Source: Patescibacteria group bacterium
Lineage (GTDB): Bacteria > Patescibacteriota > JABMPQ01 > JAHIRA01
Length of the DNA stretch: 64,000 nt
Direction: 5' to 3'
NCBI GenBank assembly: GCA_018818205.1
Contig: JAHISJ010000006.1
Location: 41,817 to 105,816, forward strand
In this document: piece after piece, positions 8,166 to 63,091 of the stretch
Position numbering within the stretch: the first letter of the stretch is position 1
How the letters are laid out: each line of letters begins with the position of its first letter
Made by a program: the position numbers and the translations under genes
Notes under the pieces: generated by a model
Database searches by the model: none
What the model was told of the DNA's origin: nothing
Seen by the model: the letters and a program-made list of their open reading frames with translations, nothing else

Positions 8166-11003
8166 ATGAAGAAACATCGAGTTAAAGCGCTTGTCGCGCT
8201 TGTTCTTGCAGGGGTTATGTCCTTTGCAACCTATTACTATGTGGTTCCAAATCAACCACAGGATTTAGATTTGAGTGCAAAAGAGGCTGAGGCACTCACG
8301 CAAAATTGGGATCAAGTGTCCCCAGTGGGAATTAATGCAAATGCAGCAAATATTGGTAAAGCCACAGATACTTTAACGGCTTCCGGAAGCTATCTTTATG
8401 CTACTGCAAGAAGGACCGATCCGATATTGCCATCACTTTGGCGATACGAATATGTTAATAGTCAAAATTCATGGACACAGATTACTGAGGATGCCTGTGG
8501 TGCTTCTGCTGAAGCAGAATATTTTACTGCATCGGTTGATTTTGAAGGTGATTACGTTGCAGCAGTTTTTGATGAAACAAATGGTGCTTCCGTTGTTAAA
8601 ATAAACAATGGGCAAGTAGGCTGTACTGCAGCAAATAAGTTGGGTACAACGGGGCTTGGGTATGGAAGTGACCTTTCAAACATTACTGACTTGTTTGTGC
8701 TCGAAGGTACTCTGTATGCCTTTGGTACTTTTGATACAGGTCATTCAGGAGCAGTCTTGCTTCAATATAACGAAGGATCAGGTACATGGTCGCATGTTGC
8801 ATCTCGTGAGGATGGACAGTTTGGCGCGACAACTACTGATTCTCAGCGGTGTGATGTTTCTGAAAGTCGAGCATACTGTACTTTTATGGGTAGCTCAGGT
8901 ATCCAGTTTTATACTGCAAGTGTAGGGAATATGCAAACTTGGGAGCAGCTAGGTCCACAAGGAAATAAAGATGGGTTTGGTGATCCGGGTAATGTACTTG
9001 CATGGGGGGTTGCTTTCACCTACGGGAAAGTATACGTTGGAACATCCCATCCTACAGGTGGGCAGCTTTGGCAGTATGTTGAAGGAAGTGCACATGACTC
9101 AATGAAGCAGATAAATCAGAATGGCTTTGGATCAGCAAATAACCAACATGTATGGGATATTGCAGAGCTGAATGGATACGTGTGGGCGACGGTATTTGAT
9201 ACCAATAGGAAGGCAAGCGTGTATCGTCTACAAGATCCGGATGCGAAAACTTGGGAATTGGCAAATATGCAAGGAGGGAGTTTTAAAGCAACAAATGAAC
9301 CTGTAATTGCGCTTACAAATTACAACAACAATATGTATGCGCTTGGGTATGACTATGATGGAGCTACAGACAGTTATATACAGGCGTATCGTTTTAAAGA
9401 CTATACCAAGCCTGAAGTATCAAACCGTGATCCCATGCCTTTATCTGGAGCAATCGTTGCACGTCCGGAAATGAAGTTTACCACAACTGATGATGAAACG
9501 GGAAACGATGTTGGAACTATTGCGGTAACTGTTACTGGTCAAACGAGTGGACAGCATGCTAATTTAACGATTGGCAAAACGCTTGCATCTGCTACTGAGA
9601 CAAACGCGCGAGTGTACAACTGGACTGTTCAATCGGACAAGGATTTTGCTTCAAGTGAGTTTGTCACTATTGATGTAACGATTTGTGACCGGTTTGTGTT
9701 GCAAAATTGTACAACCGATTCATGGGACTTTAGAGCACTTGCTATAGTTCCTGGTGGTCCAGGTGGTATTCTCAGGTTCAAAGCCCCAAGTGGTGTATGG
9801 CAAAATGACGACAAAACATATCAAGCTAAGGGAATGGTGCAGGTTGGTGTATTAGATGTGAGTGGCATCAAACAGGTCAGGTACACAGTTGATGGCTCAA
9901 ATCCAAATCAAAATTCAAAAGAACTTAAGAAGTGTGAGACGCTGTCATTTGTTAAGGATACTGTACTTAAGTATATTACGATTGATGACAGCGGAAACGT
10001 ATCTGAAGTATACTCGGTAAATATTCTTCTTCCAACGTCTACGGCAAATAAAACTCCCTTCATAGCAACAGCCCCCGGTAAAACAGGTGGTCCTGATGTC
10101 AAAGTATTTGACAAGAATGGAAATATGCAAGCTGAGTGGAATGCATTTGCCAAGGACTTACGCTGTGGTGCACGAGTAACTACCGGTGACATAAACGGTG
10201 ACGGTACTGATGAAGTCATTGTTGGATCCGGTGAAGGATGTACATCTCACGTGAGAGTATTCTCACCAAACGGTGTCGCAAAGCCTATTGATTACTTTCC
10301 GTTTGGCACTGACTCACGTACCGGTGCGGATGTTGCCGCAGGTGATGTTGACGGTGATGGTAAAGATGAAATTGCTATGATGCAATTTAGAAACGGTGAG
10401 ACTTGGGTAAAGGTGTATCGTTACAACAATCCTAGAGACATTGTTGGTGAGTGGCGAGCATACGAGGCTGGACAAGAATTTGGTGGAACTGTAGCTATGG
10501 GTGACTTTGACTACGATGGTAAAGCAGAGGTAGTAACCGGTGCCGGACCATCAGGCGATCCTCATATACGAATGTTTGAAGCAGACGGAGCGTTTAAAGG
10601 TGATCTCTACGCATTCCCACATTATGGTCTTGGATGGGAGCGTGAGGATGTCAGACGCGGCATAGACGTTTCAGCAGGCGACACTGATTTTGATGGTAAA
10701 GATGAAATTATGGCAACCGTTGCTGAAGGCGCACAAGCATACATGAAGGTCTACAGATGGAACAAGAGACGAAACATCATCATGGAAAACAAAGCATATG
10801 ACGCGCATGTTGGTACCAATGGATCACTCGGCGACGTTGACCAAGATGGATTTGCTGAGGCAGTCTCAGGTCCCGGATTTGGCGGCGGCCCTCAGGTGAG
10901 AGCGTTTGAAATGAACAAAGAACCTATAGAAAACACCGACTTCTTTGCCTACCTGAAATCATTCAGAGGTGGTACGGACATAGAGGTTGGGTATAGAAAG
11001 TAA
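8166..11003 (+). CDS. large secreted protein with C-terminal FG-GAP/VCBS-type beta-propeller repeats
   Basis: 945 aa; N-terminal signal peptide (KALVALVLAGVMSFA); >=5 repeats of GD(I/V/F/T)(N/D)GDG(T/K)DE(V/I) with intervening FG-like segments typical of FG-GAP repeats. Confidence 0.7.
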   Translation: MKKHRVKALVALVLAGVMSFATYYYVVPNQPQDLDLSAKEAEALTQNWDQVSPVGINANAANIGKATDTLTASGSYLYATARRTDPILPSLWRYEYVNSQNSWTQITEDACGASAEAEYFTASVDFEGDYVAAVFDETNGASVVKINNGQVGCTAANKLGTTGLGYGSDLSNITDLFVLEGTLYAFGTFDTGHSGAVLLQYNEGSGTWSHVASREDGQFGATTTDSQRCDVSESRAYCTFMGSSGIQFYTASVGNMQTWEQLGPQGNKDGFGDPGNVLAWGVAFTYGKVYVGTSHPTGGQLWQYVEGSAHDSMKQINQNGFGSANNQHVWDIAELNGYVWATVFDTNRKASVYRLQDPDAKTWELANMQGGSFKATNEPVIALTNYNNNMYALGYDYDGATDSYIQAYRFKDYTKPEVSNRDPMPLSGAIVARPEMKFTTTDDETGNDVGTIAVTVTGQTSGQHANLTIGKTLASATETNARVYNWTVQSDKDFASSEFVTIDVTICDRFVLQNCTTDSWDFRALAIVPGGPGGILRFKAPSGVWQNDDKTYQAKGMVQVGVLDVSGIKQVRYTVDGSNPNQNSKELKKCETLSFVKDTVLKYITIDDSGNVSEVYSVNILLPTSTANKTPFIATAPGKTGGPDVKVFDKNGNMQAEWNAFAKDLRCGARVTTGDINGDGTDEVIVGSGEGCTSHVRVFSPNGVAKPIDYFPFGTDSRTGADVAAGDVDGDGKDEIAMMQFRNGETWVKVYRYNNPRDIVGEWRAYEAGQEFGGTVAMGDFDYDGKAEVVTGAGPSGDPHIRMFEADGAFKGDLYAFPHYGLGWEREDVRRGIDVSAGDTDFDGKDEIMATVAEGAQAYMKVYRWNKRRNIIMENKAYDAHVGTNGSLGDVDQDGFAEAVSGPGFGGGPQVRAFEMNKEPIENTDFFAYLKSFRGGTDIEVGYRK

Positions 11004-11009
11004 ACAGTA

Positions 11010-11092
11010 GGGGCGCCCCTTGTGGGCGCCCATCTAATAATTGTATCGCATTCAATACGGGCGCCCACAAGGGGCGCCCGTACGTTTTTTTT
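11010..11092 (+). terminator. GC-rich 21-22 bp palindromic hairpin + T8 run (terminator / REP-like element)
   Basis: arms GGGGCGCCCCTTGTGGGCGCCC (11010-11031) and GGGCGCCCACAAGGGGCGCCC (11059-11079), 27-nt loop, followed by TTTTTTTT; between convergent genes. Confidence 0.55.
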
Positions 11093-14714: not shown

Positions 14715-14735
14715 CATTTGTACGAATATCAATAT

Positions 14736-14760
14736 AAAAACGCCCTTGCGGGCGTTTTTT
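14736..14760 (+). terminator. intrinsic terminator (AACGCCC-ttgc-GGGCGTT + T6)
   Basis: perfect GC hairpin and T-run 22 nt after stop of 13362..14714. Confidence 0.7.
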
Positions 14761-14763
14761 CGT

Positions 14764-14846
14764 TTGTTATCGTAGGGGCGCGTCTATTGTACGGACGTGC
14801 CTATGTATCGTACGGGTGCGCCGCGGCGCACCCGTACGATAACAAT
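14764..14846. repeat. GC-rich nested palindromic element (36-nt perfect palindrome inside 11-bp outer inverted repeat)
   Basis: TATCGTACGGGTGCGCCGCGGCGCACCCGTACGATA (14806-14841) is a perfect palindrome; outer arms TTGTTATCGTA (14764-14774)/TACGATAACAA (14835-14845); no T-run on either strand; shares CGTACGGG(C/T)GC core with element at 11059-11084. Confidence 0.5.
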
Positions 14847-20830: not shown

Positions 20831-22600
20831 TTAAAAGATAGTTCTCTTGGTAATATCGTCTTTAACAAGGGTGGCAAAATCATCAACTGAGTACTCTTTG
20901 ATCTCTTTTTCATCTCTTTTTCGTACGGCAATGTTGCCCGATTTTGCTTCTTTCTCACCTAACACAACAATGTAAGGCACTTTATCTTTAATCGCGTCAG
21001 CTATTTTTTTACCTACAGATTCTTCGCGCAGATCTTCTTCTATGCGAAGTCCGCGATCTTTGAGCGTTTGTACTAGAGTGTGTGTTTCTTTGAGCACTTT
21101 TTCTGATACAGAAAGTACTTTTACGTGATAGGGTGCAAGCCAGACAGGGAACTTCCCAGCGTATTCCTCTATGAGGATTGCCATGAGTCTCTCTGCCGAA
21201 CCAATAATGCCACGGTGAATCATTACTGGCCTTCTCTCTGTGCCATCCTTGTCTATATAGGTGAGATCAAATCGCTCTGGCATGTTTTTGTCTATCTGTA
21301 CGGTACAGATTTGCCATTCTCTCATGAGGCAGTCCTTGACGATAATATCCACTTTAGGACCGTAAAATGCCGCTTCGCCAATTTCTTCTTTAAAAGTGAT
21401 GTTAGTTTCTGTAAGGAGGTCTCTTAATAATGACTCAGATTCGTCCCATATTGTATCATCACCGATGTACTTTTCTTTTTTCTCTGGATCTCTAAGTGAT
21501 AGTCGTATTGAGTAGTCGGTAAGGCCATATGTTTTAAGCGCTTCTGTAATAACATCCATAACTTTGATAAACTCATCTTTGACCTGATCTTCAGAGCAAA
21601 AGCAGTGCCCATCATCGACTGCAAAATACTTAAGCCTGGTAAGCCCTGCAAGTTCTCCTGGTTTTTCATCGCGATAAACATTTGCGAAGTCTGAAAACCT
21701 AAGAGGCAGGTCCTTGTAACTTCTCTTTTTTGCAGCAAAAATTTGCGTATGCTGAGGACAATTCATTGGCTTAAGGTAGTACTTTTCTTCTGTGTAATGA
21801 GAATGTACCTCGAGCATGTCATCTTTATACTTCTCGTAATGCCCTGAGACTTTAAATAATTCTGCTTTATTTATATTGGGTGTGTGAACCTCCTCATAGC
21901 CAATCTTCGTGTTGAGTTCCCGAGAGTAGTTTATAATTTCGTTTCTAACAATGAATCCTTTTGGTGTATAGAGGGGGAGACCCGGACCAATAAGATCAGA
22001 AAAGGTGAATAGATCAAGCTCTTTACCAAGCTTTCTATGATCTCTCTTTGCAGCTTCCTTTTTTAGAGCTACAAAGGTGCGTAGTTCTTTTGGGGTATCA
22101 AATGCGAGTCCATAAATTCTTTGGAGCATGGGGTTTTTCTCATCTCCACGCCAATACGCGCCAGAAGTTTTCTCTAGTGAAAATGATTTTTGGTTTAGCT
22201 CACCAGAAGATTCTACATGAGGGCCTGAACATAAATCAACAAATGAACCGGTACGGTAAATAATGACTTCATCTTCACCTTCTTTTTTAAGTTCATTGAT
22301 GAGTTCGATTTTATAGGGCTGATTTGCTTTTTCAAACGCACTAAGTGCATCAGGTATTGATATCACTTCCTTTTCAAAGGGGAGGTTTTGACTGATAAGT
22401 GATTTCATTTTCTCTTCAAGGAGTGGGAGATCCTCTGGGATAAGTGTTCTAGGCAGCTCAAAATCATAGTAAAACCCAGTATCTATTGCTGGGCCAATGC
22501 CAAGCTTTGCTTCAGGAAACATCTCTAAAACGGCGGCTGCGAGGATATGGGAGAGCGAATGTCGCTTAATCTCTAGTGTAGGTTGATTATTTTTGCTCAT
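20831..22600 (-). CDS. thrS: threonine--tRNA ligase (short form lacking N-terminal TGS domain)
   Basis: 589 aa; HSLSHILAAAV (editing-domain HxxxH), class-II aaRS motifs, C-terminal anticodon-binding domain. Confidence 0.9.
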   Translation of the reverse strand: MSKNNQPTLEIKRHSLSHILAAAVLEMFPEAKLGIGPAIDTGFYYDFELPRTLIPEDLPLLEEKMKSLISQNLPFEKEVISIPDALSAFEKANQPYKIELINELKKEGEDEVIIYRTGSFVDLCSGPHVESSGELNQKSFSLEKTSGAYWRGDEKNPMLQRIYGLAFDTPKELRTFVALKKEAAKRDHRKLGKELDLFTFSDLIGPGLPLYTPKGFIVRNEIINYSRELNTKIGYEEVHTPNINKAELFKVSGHYEKYKDDMLEVHSHYTEEKYYLKPMNCPQHTQIFAAKKRSYKDLPLRFSDFANVYRDEKPGELAGLTRLKYFAVDDGHCFCSEDQVKDEFIKVMDVITEALKTYGLTDYSIRLSLRDPEKKEKYIGDDTIWDESESLLRDLLTETNITFKEEIGEAAFYGPKVDIIVKDCLMREWQICTVQIDKNMPERFDLTYIDKDGTERRPVMIHRGIIGSAERLMAILIEEYAGKFPVWLAPYHVKVLSVSEKVLKETHTLVQTLKDRGLRIEEDLREESVGKKIADAIKDKVPYIVVLGEKEAKSGNIAVRKRDEKEIKEYSVDDFATLVKDDITKRTIF

Positions 22601-22633
22601 ATGCGTGTTTTGTGATGATTATTTTTCGCTATT

Positions 22634-22793
22634 TCTTCAAAATCTCTCCTCCCTCTTTTTTTAGTTTTAAGGCCTCGGTTTCTTTTTAGCTTTGACGGTG
22701 TAATAGCAGAATATGAACATGGAGTGGACTTTTTAGTGTATGGAGGGAGGCACAGAGAAAAACTAAAAAAAGAGGGAGGAGAGATTTTGAAGA
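22634..22793. repeat. 160-bp element with perfect 35-bp terminal inverted repeats (MITE-like or long RNA stem) in thrS upstream region
   Basis: TCTTCAAAATCTCTCCTCCCTCTTTTTTTAGTTTT (22634-22668) is the exact reverse complement of 22759-22793; 90-nt spacer. Confidence 0.6.
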
Positions 22794-22863
22794 GGAAATG
22801 ATATTTTTTGTCCTAAATAAACAAAAAAACAGCTAGTAGTTACTTCTACTGTTTACTGTACCG

Positions 22864-24009
22864 CTATTTGACGAGAATTTCAATATTGCTGTCGCTTGAG
22901 GGCACTTTGGTTACCCAAAAAGGAGAGTAGGCGATGTCTACTGAGTCTACTTCCGGGAACTGTTTGTAGTAGGCAACCAAGTCGCCGTAATTTCTGCCTT
23001 GCAGCGGTGCTTTCTCGAATGCTTTTGACGGGATTTTGTTTATTGTTGCGGCTGATGCAGAGATGGTGACAATGGCACTTCTTTTTTCTTCGTCAATAGA
23101 GGCAAGTGAGTAGGATAAATCATCAGTGTTGAAGGATATTATTTCTTTTGCTTCGCTTATTTGTTTTTGGATTTTTTCTTCAGCGATTGTCTTCATTTGG
23201 GCTGTGTTGAAGGATACAAGAGTCAATTTTATTTTTTCTGTTACCTCAAACGCAGGGGTAATATCATCCTCTTTTACTTTTGGTGTAGCGTTAATAATTT
23301 CATAGTGTGTAGTTTTGGGGACGATAATTTCACTTGGAGGGAGCGTTTCTTTGATTTTGGCAATCTCTTCTTGGATGATTTGCGTTGCCACGTCTTCTTT
23401 AGCCTTCTCGATCGTCTCTGCAGTAACCACAAAGTCTTCAACACGTCCTCCGGTCATGGGAGTGTTGCTTTCTGCATAGATTAACTCTTGCCAGTTTGCC
23501 CAGAGCTTAACGATGACAAAATGTGTTGGCGCCACGTTGCCTTGTGCGCCTTTTTCTGCTGCGGTAACGGGAATATCAATTTTTCCTTTTGCGGGTACTT
23601 GTGCCCATGTATCAATTTTGAAAAGAACGCCACTATCACTTAGTAGTTGTGTTTTTTGCTTGAGTGGCTGAGGTTCGCTTCTGTTGTTGTAGATAGTGAC
23701 CGTTCCTTTTGCATACGAATCGACCTCCTTTTTTTCTACCGCATCAAACGTTTTGGTAGCGTCGATTGTTTTTTCAATAATTTGTCCTTTTACCGCATTG
23801 AACGCGGTGAGGTTTCCATCGGCGTCAGGGGAGATGGTGACATTGAGTGACGCATTGGTTGTATCTTCTTTTGGGTGAAGTGTTATTTCTGCTTTTGATA
23901 TGGTTGTATGTATTACAAAAGCGATAAGTACCAGCGATGCAATGATAAATAGGATAAGGTAGGGCTTATAGGAGGGGCCTTGTTTTATTTTTCCAAGATC
24001 AACACTCAT
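22864..24009 (-). CDS. hypothetical membrane-anchored (N-in, C-out) protein
   Basis: 381 aa; single N-terminal TM (YLILFIIASLVLIAFVI), large T/K/E-rich extracytoplasmic domain; 4-nt overlap with upstream HExxH gene. Confidence 0.5.
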   Translation of the reverse strand: MSVDLGKIKQGPSYKPYLILFIIASLVLIAFVIHTTISKAEITLHPKEDTTNASLNVTISPDADGNLTAFNAVKGQIIEKTIDATKTFDAVEKKEVDSYAKGTVTIYNNRSEPQPLKQKTQLLSDSGVLFKIDTWAQVPAKGKIDIPVTAAEKGAQGNVAPTHFVIVKLWANWQELIYAESNTPMTGGRVEDFVVTAETIEKAKEDVATQIIQEEIAKIKETLPPSEIIVPKTTHYEIINATPKVKEDDITPAFEVTEKIKLTLVSFNTAQMKTIAEEKIQKQISEAKEIISFNTDDLSYSLASIDEEKRSAIVTISASAATINKIPSKAFEKAPLQGRNYGDLVAYYKQFPEVDSVDIAYSPFWVTKVPSSDSNIEILVK

Positions 24010-24503
24010 CTAAGATAGCGTGAAAGTTTAGATACAATTTGGGAGAGGGGATCACGGTTAACGTATACGCGTCTTCTCCTTTGAATGTGGTAACCGTTTT
24101 TTTGAAGGTAGCTTTGCCAGTTGTCTTTGATCCACTTTTTTGATTTTGTGTGGAGTTCTAGTAGACCACGAGCCTCAAACTCTCTGCGCATTATACCATG
24201 CTTGTGTGGGTACTCATAGGATTTTTTAAGTGGGGAGCTAAAGCCGTGTGCATAGTGAATAAATTCATGGACAATAGTTTCTTCAACAACATAGGAGGGG
24301 ACTTTGGGATCTTTAAACAACCCCGATATGGTAATGAGGGTTGATTTGTCTGGAAGCATTTTGATTGATCCGAGCTGTCTTTTAGCTTTTTTGCCAAAGC
24401 GAATAGTAATAGCGTTTTTAATGGGGACATCACAAAAGTGATTTTCTGTATAGTGGGCGAGTGCGTTTTCTAAGTCAGCGTTGGCTCTCATATTGTTTCT
24501 CAA
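24006..24503 (-). CDS. SprT-like/DUF45-like zinc metallopeptidase-fold protein (HExxH)
   Basis: 165 aa; VHEFIHYAHG HExxH motif preceded by beta-rich region as in SprT/WLM/DUF45 minimal metallopeptidases. Confidence 0.5.
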   Translation of the reverse strand: MRNNMRANADLENALAHYTENHFCDVPIKNAITIRFGKKAKRQLGSIKMLPDKSTLITISGLFKDPKVPSYVVEETIVHEFIHYAHGFSSPLKKSYEYPHKHGIMRREFEARGLLELHTKSKKWIKDNWQSYLQKNGYHIQRRRRVYVNRDPLSQIVSKLSRYLR

Positions 24504-56403: not shown

Positions 56404-58059
56404 TTACTTATTCTTAAGACATTTTATCATGTACGTTTCACGGAGGCGATATCCAATTTTTCGATAATAATTTCTGGCTCCAATCCCAGAAATAACCGTT
56501 ATTCTTGAGAGATTACATTCTTTATTTGTTATTTTTTCAGCTTCTGTGATGAGTAGTTTACCGTAGCCTACGTGTTGAGAAGCTCGTTTCTTTCTATCCG
56601 AGAATTCAAGCGTTTCTCCATAAGTATGCACTTCTCTAATAATCGATGCGTTTTTAAGTACTGGGATAAATACATCAAGGGAGGGGATCCTAAGCCTAAG
56701 GAGTGCAATAAGTTTATCTTTCTTAGTATCTTCAAAACTTAAAAATATTTCGGTACCGCCTGATGCGTTATAGTCTCTGCGGACCATTTTTATATTTTCT
56801 TTGATGATTTTTTCGTCACGTATTTCTCTACATCTAATGCACTGACATTTTGCATGCTCTGTTTCCATTTTTTGGTGTACGATTTGCCTGATATTTGACA
56901 GTTTATTTCCTCCAATAATGTCTGGAGCAGGTATGTCTCTTCCAAGTCGCATGATACGTACGTAAGGTGGGATTACTTTCTTAATATTCATAATAAGCTC
57001 AACGAGTTGAGCATTGGTGTACGGTGTGAACTTTTTCTCTCTATAGAGCTTTTCTAAGTCTGAATCGCGTGTTACAACACATGGATATATTTTGATAAGA
57101 TCAGGCTTAAAGTTGGGATTATTAAAAAGTGTTTCAAACATTTCAAGATCTCGTTTTATTGTTGATCCGTACAAATTTGGCATGAGGTGGTAGTTGATCT
57201 TAAGCCCTGCATCTTTGAGGAGCTTGGTTGCACGAATAGTCTCTTTAACACTATGGCCGCGCCTGTTTTTTTTAAGCACATCATCATAAATTGACTGAAC
57301 ACCAATTTCTACACGCGTTGCACCGAGCTCCCTAAACCATAGAATTTCCTTTTTGGTGATGTAATCGGGACGTGTTTCTAATGTTAGACCGATGATGCGA
57401 TTTTTGGCGGATTCGTTGCGTTTTTGGGCAGTCTGTAGAGACGCAAAATGTAGAGGCGCAAGATTTTGCGCCTCTACATTTTGCGCCTCTACAGACCCAT
57501 TCGCCGCGTCAAAACATCGTTTAATAAACCACGTTTGATACTTTTTTGGCAGGGTTGAGAACGTACCTCCCATGACAATAAGCTCAATTTTATTGGTGAG
57601 ATGACCGGTGATATTAAGTGCGTTGATTCTGGCTTGAACTTGTCTAAAGGGGTCAAATTCGGTGAGCACTGCGCGCATAACTGCAGGCTCATCAGAAAAA
57701 TAGCTTTTGGGCATACCTTTTTCTGTTGGACAGTAAAGGCAGTTTCCAGGGCATGGCCATGGTTTTGTCAGTACGGCAATTGAGGCAATGCCAGAGAGTG
57801 TACGTGTTTTTTGTTTTTGAAGAACCTTAAAGAGTTTTTTATCTGGTGCTATTTCTTTTTTTTCGAGCAATTCTCTGTACGCTGCAAGCAGTTCAATATT
57901 AGAAAAGCAGGGCATACTGTGTTTTTCAGCATATTCCCTTTTGCGTTTTTCAAAAAGCTTTGTCGTGGTATGATTACCCGTGGACACGTCTCTAATAAAA
58001 TGTTTGGCATGTTTTGACATGGCTGTATTTAACCATTTGTGATCAATTTTTACAAGCAT
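56404..58059 (-). CDS. Elp3-like radical-SAM/GNAT tRNA-modifying enzyme
   Basis: 551 aa; radical-SAM CxxxxCxxC (CPGNCLYCPTEKG), HAT/GNAT C-terminal domain (QHVGYGKLLITEAEKI). Confidence 0.8.
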   Translation of the reverse strand: MLVKIDHKWLNTAMSKHAKHFIRDVSTGNHTTTKLFEKRKREYAEKHSMPCFSNIELLAAYRELLEKKEIAPDKKLFKVLQKQKTRTLSGIASIAVLTKPWPCPGNCLYCPTEKGMPKSYFSDEPAVMRAVLTEFDPFRQVQARINALNITGHLTNKIELIVMGGTFSTLPKKYQTWFIKRCFDAANGSVEAQNVEAQNLAPLHFASLQTAQKRNESAKNRIIGLTLETRPDYITKKEILWFRELGATRVEIGVQSIYDDVLKKNRRGHSVKETIRATKLLKDAGLKINYHLMPNLYGSTIKRDLEMFETLFNNPNFKPDLIKIYPCVVTRDSDLEKLYREKKFTPYTNAQLVELIMNIKKVIPPYVRIMRLGRDIPAPDIIGGNKLSNIRQIVHQKMETEHAKCQCIRCREIRDEKIIKENIKMVRRDYNASGGTEIFLSFEDTKKDKLIALLRLRIPSLDVFIPVLKNASIIREVHTYGETLEFSDRKKRASQHVGYGKLLITEAEKITNKECNLSRITVISGIGARNYYRKIGYRLRETYMIKCLKNK

Positions 58060-62453: not shown

Positions 62454-62529
62454 GCCATCGTAGCTCAGTCGGTAGAGCGCATCCATGGTAAGGATGAGGT
62501 CACCGGTTCGATTCCGGTCGATGGCTCCA
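62454..62529 (+). tRNA. tRNA-Thr (anticodon GGU), CCA encoded
   Basis: cloverleaf: acceptor GCCATCG/CGATGGC, D-arm GCTC-AGTCGGTA-GAGC, anticodon stem CATCC/GGATG loop ATGGTAA, T-arm ACCGG-TTCGATT-CCGGT, 3' TCCA. Confidence 0.85.
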
Positions 62530-62574: not shown

Positions 62575-62619
62575 CGAGATCCCGGATATCCACTTAAGAA
62601 AGTGAATTCCAGGATGACA
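62575..62619. mobile_element. partial/rearranged copy 3 of the MITE-like element (right TIR TCCAGGATGACA + CACTTAAGAAAGTG hairpin + inverted central-module fragment)
   Basis: ACGAGATCCCGGATATCCACTTAAGAAAGTGAATTCCAGGATGACA matches right half of copy 1 and reverse complement of copy 2 central module; lacks left TIR. Confidence 0.45.
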
Positions 62620-62982
62620 GCTGGTTTTGGGGAAGAGGAAAAACATTCTAAAATCTTGCGTAGACCCCGGAGTGTAACTGAGTGGTACGTGAAAACAAGA
62701 GAATGGGCCCCCGCAAATTTCTGAATTTGTGGGGAAGAGGAGGAACACTATGGAAGTCGGAGTGGATCCCGTAGGCTTTGCGAAGGGATACACGCAGACT
62801 GGAATGATGGGCCCCCGAAAAGTTCCTACTTTTTGGGGAAGGGGAGAAACATCCTGGAAGCAGGAGTGTTGTATAAGAAAATGGAGGGGCCCCCGAGAAA
62901 TTCTGATTTCTTGGGGAAGAGGAGGAACACTATGTAAGTCGGAGCGGATCCCGAAGGCTTTGCGTAGGGATACGCGCAGACT
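62618..62982. repeat. degenerate tandem repeat array (~90-bp units alternating two subtypes; ~183-bp super-period) between tRNA-Thr and tRNA-Ser
   Basis: units beginning GGGCCCCCG...TTGGGGAAG(A/G)GGA(G/A)(G/A)AACA at 62705, 62809, 62888 plus diverged copy at ~62625; A-type units 62705-62800 and 62888-62982 ~88% identical. Confidence 0.6.
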
Positions 62983-63000
62983 TACATAGTGTTCCGACGA

Positions 63001-63091
63001 GGAGAGGTGCATGAGTGGCTTAAATGGACGGTTTGCTAAACCGTTGTACCGTGTTAAAGCGGTACCGAGGGTTCGAATCCCTCCCTCTCCG
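63001..63091 (+). tRNA. tRNA-Ser (anticodon GCU), type II with long variable arm, no encoded CCA
   Basis: acceptor GGAGAGG/CCTCTCC, anticodon stem ACGGT/ACCGT loop TTGCTAA, long variable arm, T-arm GAGGG-TTCGAAT-CCCTC. Confidence 0.85.

Follow-up and report, generated by a model that had tools for sequence, protein, structure and literature searches.

A 160-bp element with perfect 35-bp terminal inverted repeats upstream of thrS in a Patescibacteria genome

The thrS locus and its upstream inverted repeat

The window analysed here, a stretch of 64,000 nucleotides from a Patescibacteria (Candidate Phyla Radiation, CPR) metagenome-assembled genome, carries housekeeping genes including those for NusG, L11, L1, GatB, DnaE, FtsW, a V-type ATPase operon, RF-1, S2, EF-Ts and others. 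An intact thrS gene is located on the minus strand at 20831-22600 and encodes a threonyl-tRNA synthetase of 589 aa, with Pfam matches to tRNA_SAD, tRNA-synt_2b and HGTP_anticodon. The protein is 100% identical to the NCBI entry ‘threonine--tRNA ligase [Patescibacteria group bacterium]’, and its next relatives are 63–67% identical. The gene upstream (22864-24009, minus strand) encodes a 381-aa protein with a weak Baseplate_J-like match, and is conserved at this position in each of the four syntenic relatives. Together with a gene for a ~165-aa protein it forms a pair (22864-24503 in the window; loci L088, L090 and L091) conserved in all relatives between a GGDEF-domain gene or dnaE and thrS, which places a phage-baseplate-like protein in a fixed position within a CPR housekeeping neighbourhood.

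A repeat search identified, upstream of thrS, a 160-bp element whose arms at 22634-22668 and 22759-22793 are complementary at 35 of 35 positions and enclose a non-coding interior of 90 nt (22669-22758), in exact agreement with the earlier sequence-only reading. The left arm reads TCTTCAAAATCTCTCCTCCCTCTTTTTTTAGTTTT on the plus strand, and the right arm is its exact reverse complement. In a transcript of thrS sense, the left arm corresponds to the purine-rich 3’ half of the stem (AAAACUAAAAAAAGAGGGAGGAGAGAUUUUGAAGA), and the right arm to the pyrimidine-rich 5’ half. All 35 pairs are Watson–Crick, with neither a G-U pair nor a bulge, and the pairing ends sharply, the outward T at 22633 and G at 22794 being unpaired.

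Allowing up to 3 mismatches, the 35-mer was detected in the 64-kb window only as the two arms, and the mean number of 35-mer matches in dinucleotide-preserving shuffles of the window (n = 100) was 0.00. The purine-rich arm core AGAGGGAGGAGAG, searched with up to 1 mismatch, is also confined to the arms within the window. The arms form the longest inverted repeat of the window. Among perfect inverted repeats with wide spacing they are also the longest in the 686 kb made up of the window and the fetched loci, where the runner-up (loop of at least 30 nt) has arms of 20 nt.

No ORF of at least 20 aa is confined to the interior, and only three ORFs, of 23–25 aa, touch the 160-bp element, none of them lying inside the interior. 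A 17-codon ORF in the interior on the thrS strand (MFIFCYYTVKAKKKPRP) and ORFs of 7–8 codons on the opposite strand are too short and unsupported as peptides, and were treated as chance occurrences. Comparison of the predicted RNA fold of the interior with shuffled sequences gave z = +0.73, indicating no structure beyond chance. An additional copy of the arm core GAGGGAGG lies in the interior at 22743-22750, and the arms and interior have the short motifs GAGGGAGG and TTTTTAG in common; these sub-repeats were dismissed as meaningful features, their occurrence being within chance for such composition. The IHF consensus site WATCAANNNNTTR was not found in the element.

The element ends 33 nt before the thrS ATG (22600). 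The intervening A-rich stretch of 33 nt (22601-22633, minus strand) is mostly unpaired in the predicted fold save for one weak 3-bp pairing, and is presumed to be the translation-initiation region, untouched by the insertion. It contains no Shine-Dalgarno motif, as is the case for nearly all genes here. At ~62 ORF starts across the whole window, Shine-Dalgarno motifs are almost missing and the leaders are A/T-rich, often with TAA, which suggests Shine-Dalgarno-independent initiation in this Patescibacteria lineage. The GGAGG-rich arm was also considered as a Shine-Dalgarno sequence, and rejected because the motif is almost unused here and ~45 nt separate the arm core from the AUG.

The reality of the repeat was assessed from two assemblies. 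The window derives from a 125,165-bp MEGAHIT k141 contig (k141_1439843; ENA ERZ27247128), which carries the element mid-contig and crosses it unbroken in a single orientation, the orientation of the interior being resolved at k = 141. In the Logan assembly of SRR6514274, made independently with k = 31, the contig containing thrS (L001) begins exactly 30 nt inside the left arm, and the contig containing the upstream gene (L007) ends exactly 30 nt inside the right arm. Breaks at k−1 = 30 nt into each arm are the behaviour expected of a de Bruijn graph when a real inverted repeat exceeds k in length; since the Logan contigs break at the arms, the interior orientation is not readable from them. 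The source is a metagenome-assembled contig, in which an inverted repeat could be created by the assembler, but the recurrence of both flank-to-arm junctions in the independent assembly, and the mid-contig location of the repeat (125 kb in total), flanked by intact genes that are syntenic with relatives, make such an artefact exceedingly improbable.

Distribution of the element and transcription of the thrS leader

The window was compared with the contigs carrying the four closest ThrS proteins, which at 63–67% identity represent distant relatives and not strains. The window and the relatives have in common the gene order GGDEF gene, small ORF, 165-aa gene, 381-aa gene and thrS, which is visible in full in three of the four relatives, the fourth contig starting inside the 381-aa gene. 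The spacer between the 381-aa gene and thrS measures 73, 54, 64 and 66 nt in the relatives versus 263 nt in the window, and on the basis of these lengths the 160-bp element is an insertion specific to the lineage of the window. The excess over the relatives amounts to ~190–210 nt, most of which is explained by the element, with ~40–65 nt left over.

A broader survey covered 400 nt upstream of each of 40 readable Patescibacteria-type thrS genes (the four syntenic relatives and 36 more distant ones). None of the 40 regions contains a perfect inverted repeat with arms longer than 21 nt, or a wide-loop inverted repeat with arms longer than 14 nt; those arms that exceed 14 nt belong to tight, terminator-type hairpins. 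The comparison with thrS upstream regions of relatives that had been proposed for the element thus places it in none of the four syntenic and 36 distant regions, and a conserved thrS leader hairpin in Patescibacteria was rejected on the same survey.

Further copies were then sought, as had also been proposed. A single copy of the element is present in ~73 kb of this genome, comprising the 64-kb window with 8.5 kb on its right and 0.5 kb on its left, and a word-7 blastn search of the whole spacer against the window returned only the arms. The ~73-kb sample makes a family above ~50 copies per Mb unlikely and leaves room for a low-copy one. A 22-mer from the arm gave 0 matches in 185,579 species-representative genomes, a collection that lacks the host species and its near relatives, the best ThrS there being 56% identical. 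An arm 20-mer gave no true match in JGI metagenome contigs, where five unrelated GC-rich contexts returned one match each, and three arm k-mers gave 0, 0 and 2 matches in IMG/VR, the two corresponding to a phage terminator. Phage and plasmid records, searched by distant blastn for similarity to the 263-nt spacer, returned chance matches only (E ~1), and no match to the arm was found in ~622 kb of fetched loci. The 35-mer search, run on the ~73 kb and on these public collections, thus located the sequence only here. The sequence-only reading had named a 35-mer restricted to this site, together with relatives that lack it, as a weakly informative outcome that would weigh against it, and this is the situation observed as far as the data reach.

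The same reading had offered a miniature inverted-repeat transposable element (MITE) as one identity for the repeat. The element is short and non-coding (160 bp, below the limit of ~500 bp), is bounded by terminal inverted repeats (35-nt arms, 100% complementary), and shows presence/absence among related genomes, being missing from four distant syntenic relatives. The sequences directly outside the arms, ...CGCTATT| and |GGAAATG, have no direct repeat in common at the boundary, and so show no target-site duplication. An imperfect direct repeat does span the element, ATGATTATTTTT at 22615-22626 matching ATGATATTTTT at 22798-22808 in 11 of 12 positions; these sequences lie 7 and 4 nt off the arms, and ~3% of random window positions score equally. 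A canonical target-site duplication was rejected for this pair, given the offset from the arms and the borderline significance. No transposase or recombinase was detected among the 46 scanned window ORFs, the search including Phage_integrase and Resolvase. The part of the MITE proposal that stands is thus a small, non-coding insertion with perfect terminal repeats, and the part that finds no support is a second copy, a target-site duplication and a transposase. Since no second copy, target-site duplication or partner transposase was found, the element is described as a MITE-like or foldback relic, in which MITE membership is architectural only and unproven.

Candidate promoters for thrS were identified by consensus scanning with a threshold of 9/12 matches, at which promoter-like matches overall are no more frequent than chance. 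The spacers of all four relatives contain sigma70-like promoters (9–10/12 matches), of the forms TTGAAA-17-TATCTT, TTGACC-16-TACAAT or TTGATT-17-TACAAT, that end 22–34 nt before the ATG and imply leaders of about 15–27 nt. In the window, the only spacer site of at least 9/12 on the thrS strand is P1 (22855-22883, minus strand), with TTGAAA (22883-22878) and TACAGT (22860-22855) separated by 17 nt and a score of 9/12, for which one such consensus match is expected by chance per 700 nt. This top sigma70-like candidate for thrS overlaps the end of the upstream gene, near the positions of the relatives' promoters, and its predicted start at ~22848 would give a leader of ~248 nt containing the entire element. 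A weaker promoter-like site, P2 (22798-22824, minus strand; TTGTTT, 15 nt, TATCAT, 8/12), has a predicted start at the first bases of the arm (~22792), and would place the hairpin at the 5’ terminus of the transcript. The stretch from the element to the thrS ATG contains no credible promoter. An outward-facing promoter built on the outward TTGAAG of the arm end was rejected, because no −10 hexamer lies at workable spacing on either side.

RNA folds also predict a terminator-like hairpin on the minus strand at 22823-22859, consisting of a stem at 22859-22829 followed by a U7 run. Because its stem is imperfect, it was not called by the terminator scan; transcription of the upstream operon probably ends at this hairpin. 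The P1 −10 hexamer and start overlap the 5’ half of this hairpin (22823-22883), a compact terminator/promoter overlap, and P1 transcripts would therefore be without the terminator stem, which would form on read-through.

With P1 and P2, both upstream of the element, as the only credible promoter-like sites, the thrS transcript probably includes the element in its 5’ UTR, a conclusion that rests on consensus promoter matches. The earlier proposal of a long perfect stem in the thrS 5’ UTR is in keeping with this arrangement, in which the element is probably carried in the mRNA. The predicted leader has a minimum free energy (MFE) of −72.7 kcal/mol (z = −8.8), and the folding analysis that had been suggested bore out the proposed stem, the full 35 bp being present in both the MFE and the centroid structures, with the AUG unpaired. 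Bacterial RNase III needs a duplex of about two helical turns, longer than about 22 bp, and the predicted 35-bp stem has the required length of uninterrupted dsRNA of roughly two turns or more. No rnc gene was seen among the scanned window ORFs. At gathering thresholds, Rfam detected nothing in the whole window except two tRNAs. With the limit relaxed to E ≤ 10 for 22560-22900 on both strands, neither a T-box nor a threonine leader was matched, and the matches obtained were generic long-hairpin plant miRNA precursor models (16–40 bits against thresholds of 73–160). The absence of a T-box, previously judged by eye, was in this way confirmed.

Origin and possible consequences of the element

Small palindromic insertions that rewire gene expression are well known in Neisseria, enterobacteria and cyanobacteria, and no description of comparable palindromic insertions in Patescibacteria was found in the searchable literature. 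The closest parallel in size and position is with the neisserial Correia elements (CREE/NEMIS), which are 153–157 bp long with 26-bp inverted repeats and, at mtrCDE for instance, separate a gene from its promoter (PMC2649163). When transcribed, Correia elements form a hairpin, and cleavage by RNase III changes the fate of the mRNA (PMC2649163). The element upstream of thrS is near-equal in size (160 versus 153–157 bp), has long terminal repeats (35 versus 26 bp) and is likewise non-coding. The Correia elements have features of their own, namely 100–250 copies per genome, a TA target, a conserved core that has an IHF site, and ends that carry promoter halves; by contrast, the window element is single-copy, shows no TA or other duplication, no IHF consensus and no sequence similarity, and resides in a Patescibacteria host. 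The end sequences also differ, with TCTTCAAAATC... in the window element versus CCGGTACGG and TCAGGACAA in CREE (PMC2649163). The element is thus not a Correia element, and the resemblance is functional and architectural only.

With bacterial MITEs such as ERIC, RUP and Nezha, the element has in common a length below 300 bp, AT-richness, terminal repeats, a non-coding and intergenic character, and presence or absence between genomes; the multi-copy spread, target-site duplication and autonomous partner IS that accompany MITEs were sought here and not found. MITE ends are rarely identical over 35 bp, whereas those of the window element are. Taken together, we favour with moderate confidence a recent, lineage-specific foldback insertion, most likely a MITE-like relic or non-autonomous derivative, with an RNA side effect of the Correia kind. 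The perfect Watson–Crick 35-mer without a G-U pair points to an origin at the DNA level and not to selection on RNA. The element is best filed as an unclassified newcomer among small foldback or MITE-like insertions, a known class.

Several other origins were weighed against this foldback insertion. Through a replication template switch, 35 nt of the spacer could have been duplicated in reverse orientation 90 nt away, giving a local, non-mobile inverted duplication. Such an event would account for a single copy with no relatives found anywhere, for the missing target-site duplication, for a window without a transposase and for arms that are perfectly identical, and the arm motifs GAGGGAGG and TTTTTAG in the interior could be added in its favour. 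It covers only 35 of the ~190–210 extra nt, however, the purine-rich arm core is unlike the rest of the window, and the motifs in common with the interior are within chance for the composition; a local duplication therefore appears unlikely. If the arms were instead recombinase sites, the 90-bp interior could be flipped to switch a promoter or other signal beside thrS. Perfect inverted repeats around a short intergenic segment at a gene start are the architecture of known invertons (fimS of E. coli, the Bacteroides capsule promoters, and flgB and cwpV of C. difficile). The plus strand of the interior contains TTGACG and GAACAT at a spacing of 17 nt (8/12, below the 9/12 scan threshold), which points away from thrS and would face it once flipped, and the k = 31 Logan assembly is compatible with either orientation. 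Against inversion, no recombinase was identified in the 46 scanned ORFs or within ~9 kb on either side, the k141 contig passes the site unbroken in one orientation, and the neighbouring gene has an essential housekeeping role, for which on/off control would be unexpected. Characterised invertible segments span about 150–1000 bp, a range that 90 bp falls below. Known invertons also have a larger segment, a clear internal promoter and a recombinase, and usually serve surface or motility genes, none of which was seen for the window element, and no report of an inverton in CPR was found in the searchable literature. We regard an invertible segment as quite unlikely.

The remaining alternative is an evolved cis-regulatory RNA, in which the leader would be purpose-built to control thrS translation or stability. 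The E. coli thrS operator is a mimic of the tRNA-Thr anticodon arm, and Bacillus thrS has a T-box. The element is similarly positioned: the gene whose 5’ UTR it probably occupies encodes an aminoacyl-tRNA synthetase, and leader control is known for such genes. Its predicted structure is also very stable. In contrast to these leaders, it matches neither a T-box nor another Rfam family, shows by eye no anticodon-arm mimic of tRNA-Thr, and is unconserved, being missing from the four syntenic relatives and the 36 distant thrS upstream regions; its interior is unstructured, its stem lacks a G-U pair or bulge, and the stem stops 33 nt before the AUG, off the ribosome-binding region, and leaves the AUG uncovered. 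An evolved regulator of this type therefore has only a slight chance of being correct. The suggestion in the sequence-only reading of a dedicated thrS control element is weakened by the same combination of absence from all relatives, unstructured interior and all-Watson–Crick stem.

For the favoured foldback insertion, a scheme for its effect on thrS can be outlined, in which we infer transcription, the presence of RNase III and cleavage. In this scheme, the insertion would have taken place in one Patescibacteria lineage, downstream of the thrS promoter and upstream of the translation-initiation region. Transcription of thrS from P1 (or P2) would then carry the element in the mRNA, where the arms could pair as a 35-bp perfect A-form duplex ending 33 nt before the AUG. 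By analogy with the neisserial Correia elements, RNase III could plausibly act on this duplex. Once cut, the mRNA would lose the inserted leader and keep a short one of about the ancestral kind, and its half-life could change. The element would thus be tolerated at the site with a side effect on thrS expression, and would not have evolved to regulate thrS.

If co-transcribed, the element would place a 35-bp perfect dsRNA at the head of an essential gene in a streamlined genome, and would be naturally suited to testing RNase III processing and how CPR bacteria tolerate mobile DNA. We consider it very unlikely that the element is an active regulatory device in CPR, whether a 90-bp invertible switch or a domesticated foldback whose RNase III processing sets the synthetase level. 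If true, such a device, as a tiny inverton or a domesticated foldback, would be the first for the Candidate Phyla Radiation, and in the domesticated form the level of an essential synthetase would be set in an organism without Shine-Dalgarno-led initiation. As a single orphan insertion without conservation, the element is chiefly of value as a clean example, and as a warning against taking every conspicuous hairpin in a synthetase leader for a regulator.

Other repeats in the window

A 66-bp near-perfect palindrome is present at 57431-57496, with 31-nt arms (GTCTGTAGAGACGCAAAATGTAGAGGCGCAA / TTGCGCCTCTACATTTTGCGCCTCTACAGAC) that are 97% complementary around a 4-nt loop. It lies in frame inside a 551-aa radical-SAM (Elp3-like) ORF (56404-58059, minus strand), where it encodes ...SVEAQNVEAQNLAPLHFASLQT..., and falls within an apparent insertion in the Radical_SAM domain, reminiscent of the in-frame palindromic elements of Rickettsia. 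GC-rich palindromes were also observed between convergent genes at 11002-11088 and 14721-14845, with the common motifs GTAGGGGCGC / GGGCGCCC / CGGCGCACCCGTACG, and the in-gene palindrome is built of GTAGAGGCGC, which is related to these motifs. The sequence GTAGRGGCGC (up to 1 mismatch) occurs 7 times versus 2.4 expected. The GC-rich palindromes may constitute a REP-like repeat family in this 40% GC genome.

Four tandem, diverged units of ~80–115 nt are located at 62599-62998, between tRNA-Thr (62454-62529) and tRNA-Ser (63001-63091). Each unit consists of a hairpin (e.g. CCCCGCAAATTTCTGAATTTGTGGGG) followed by a conserved GGGGAAGAGGAGGAACA. The units have no Rfam match, and overlap a 150-aa ORF on the opposite strand without Pfam matches. 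Among the copies, compensatory double changes were observed in 5 of 11 stem pairs, and the units may be an unfamiliar structured RNA or a repeat array in the tRNA spacer.
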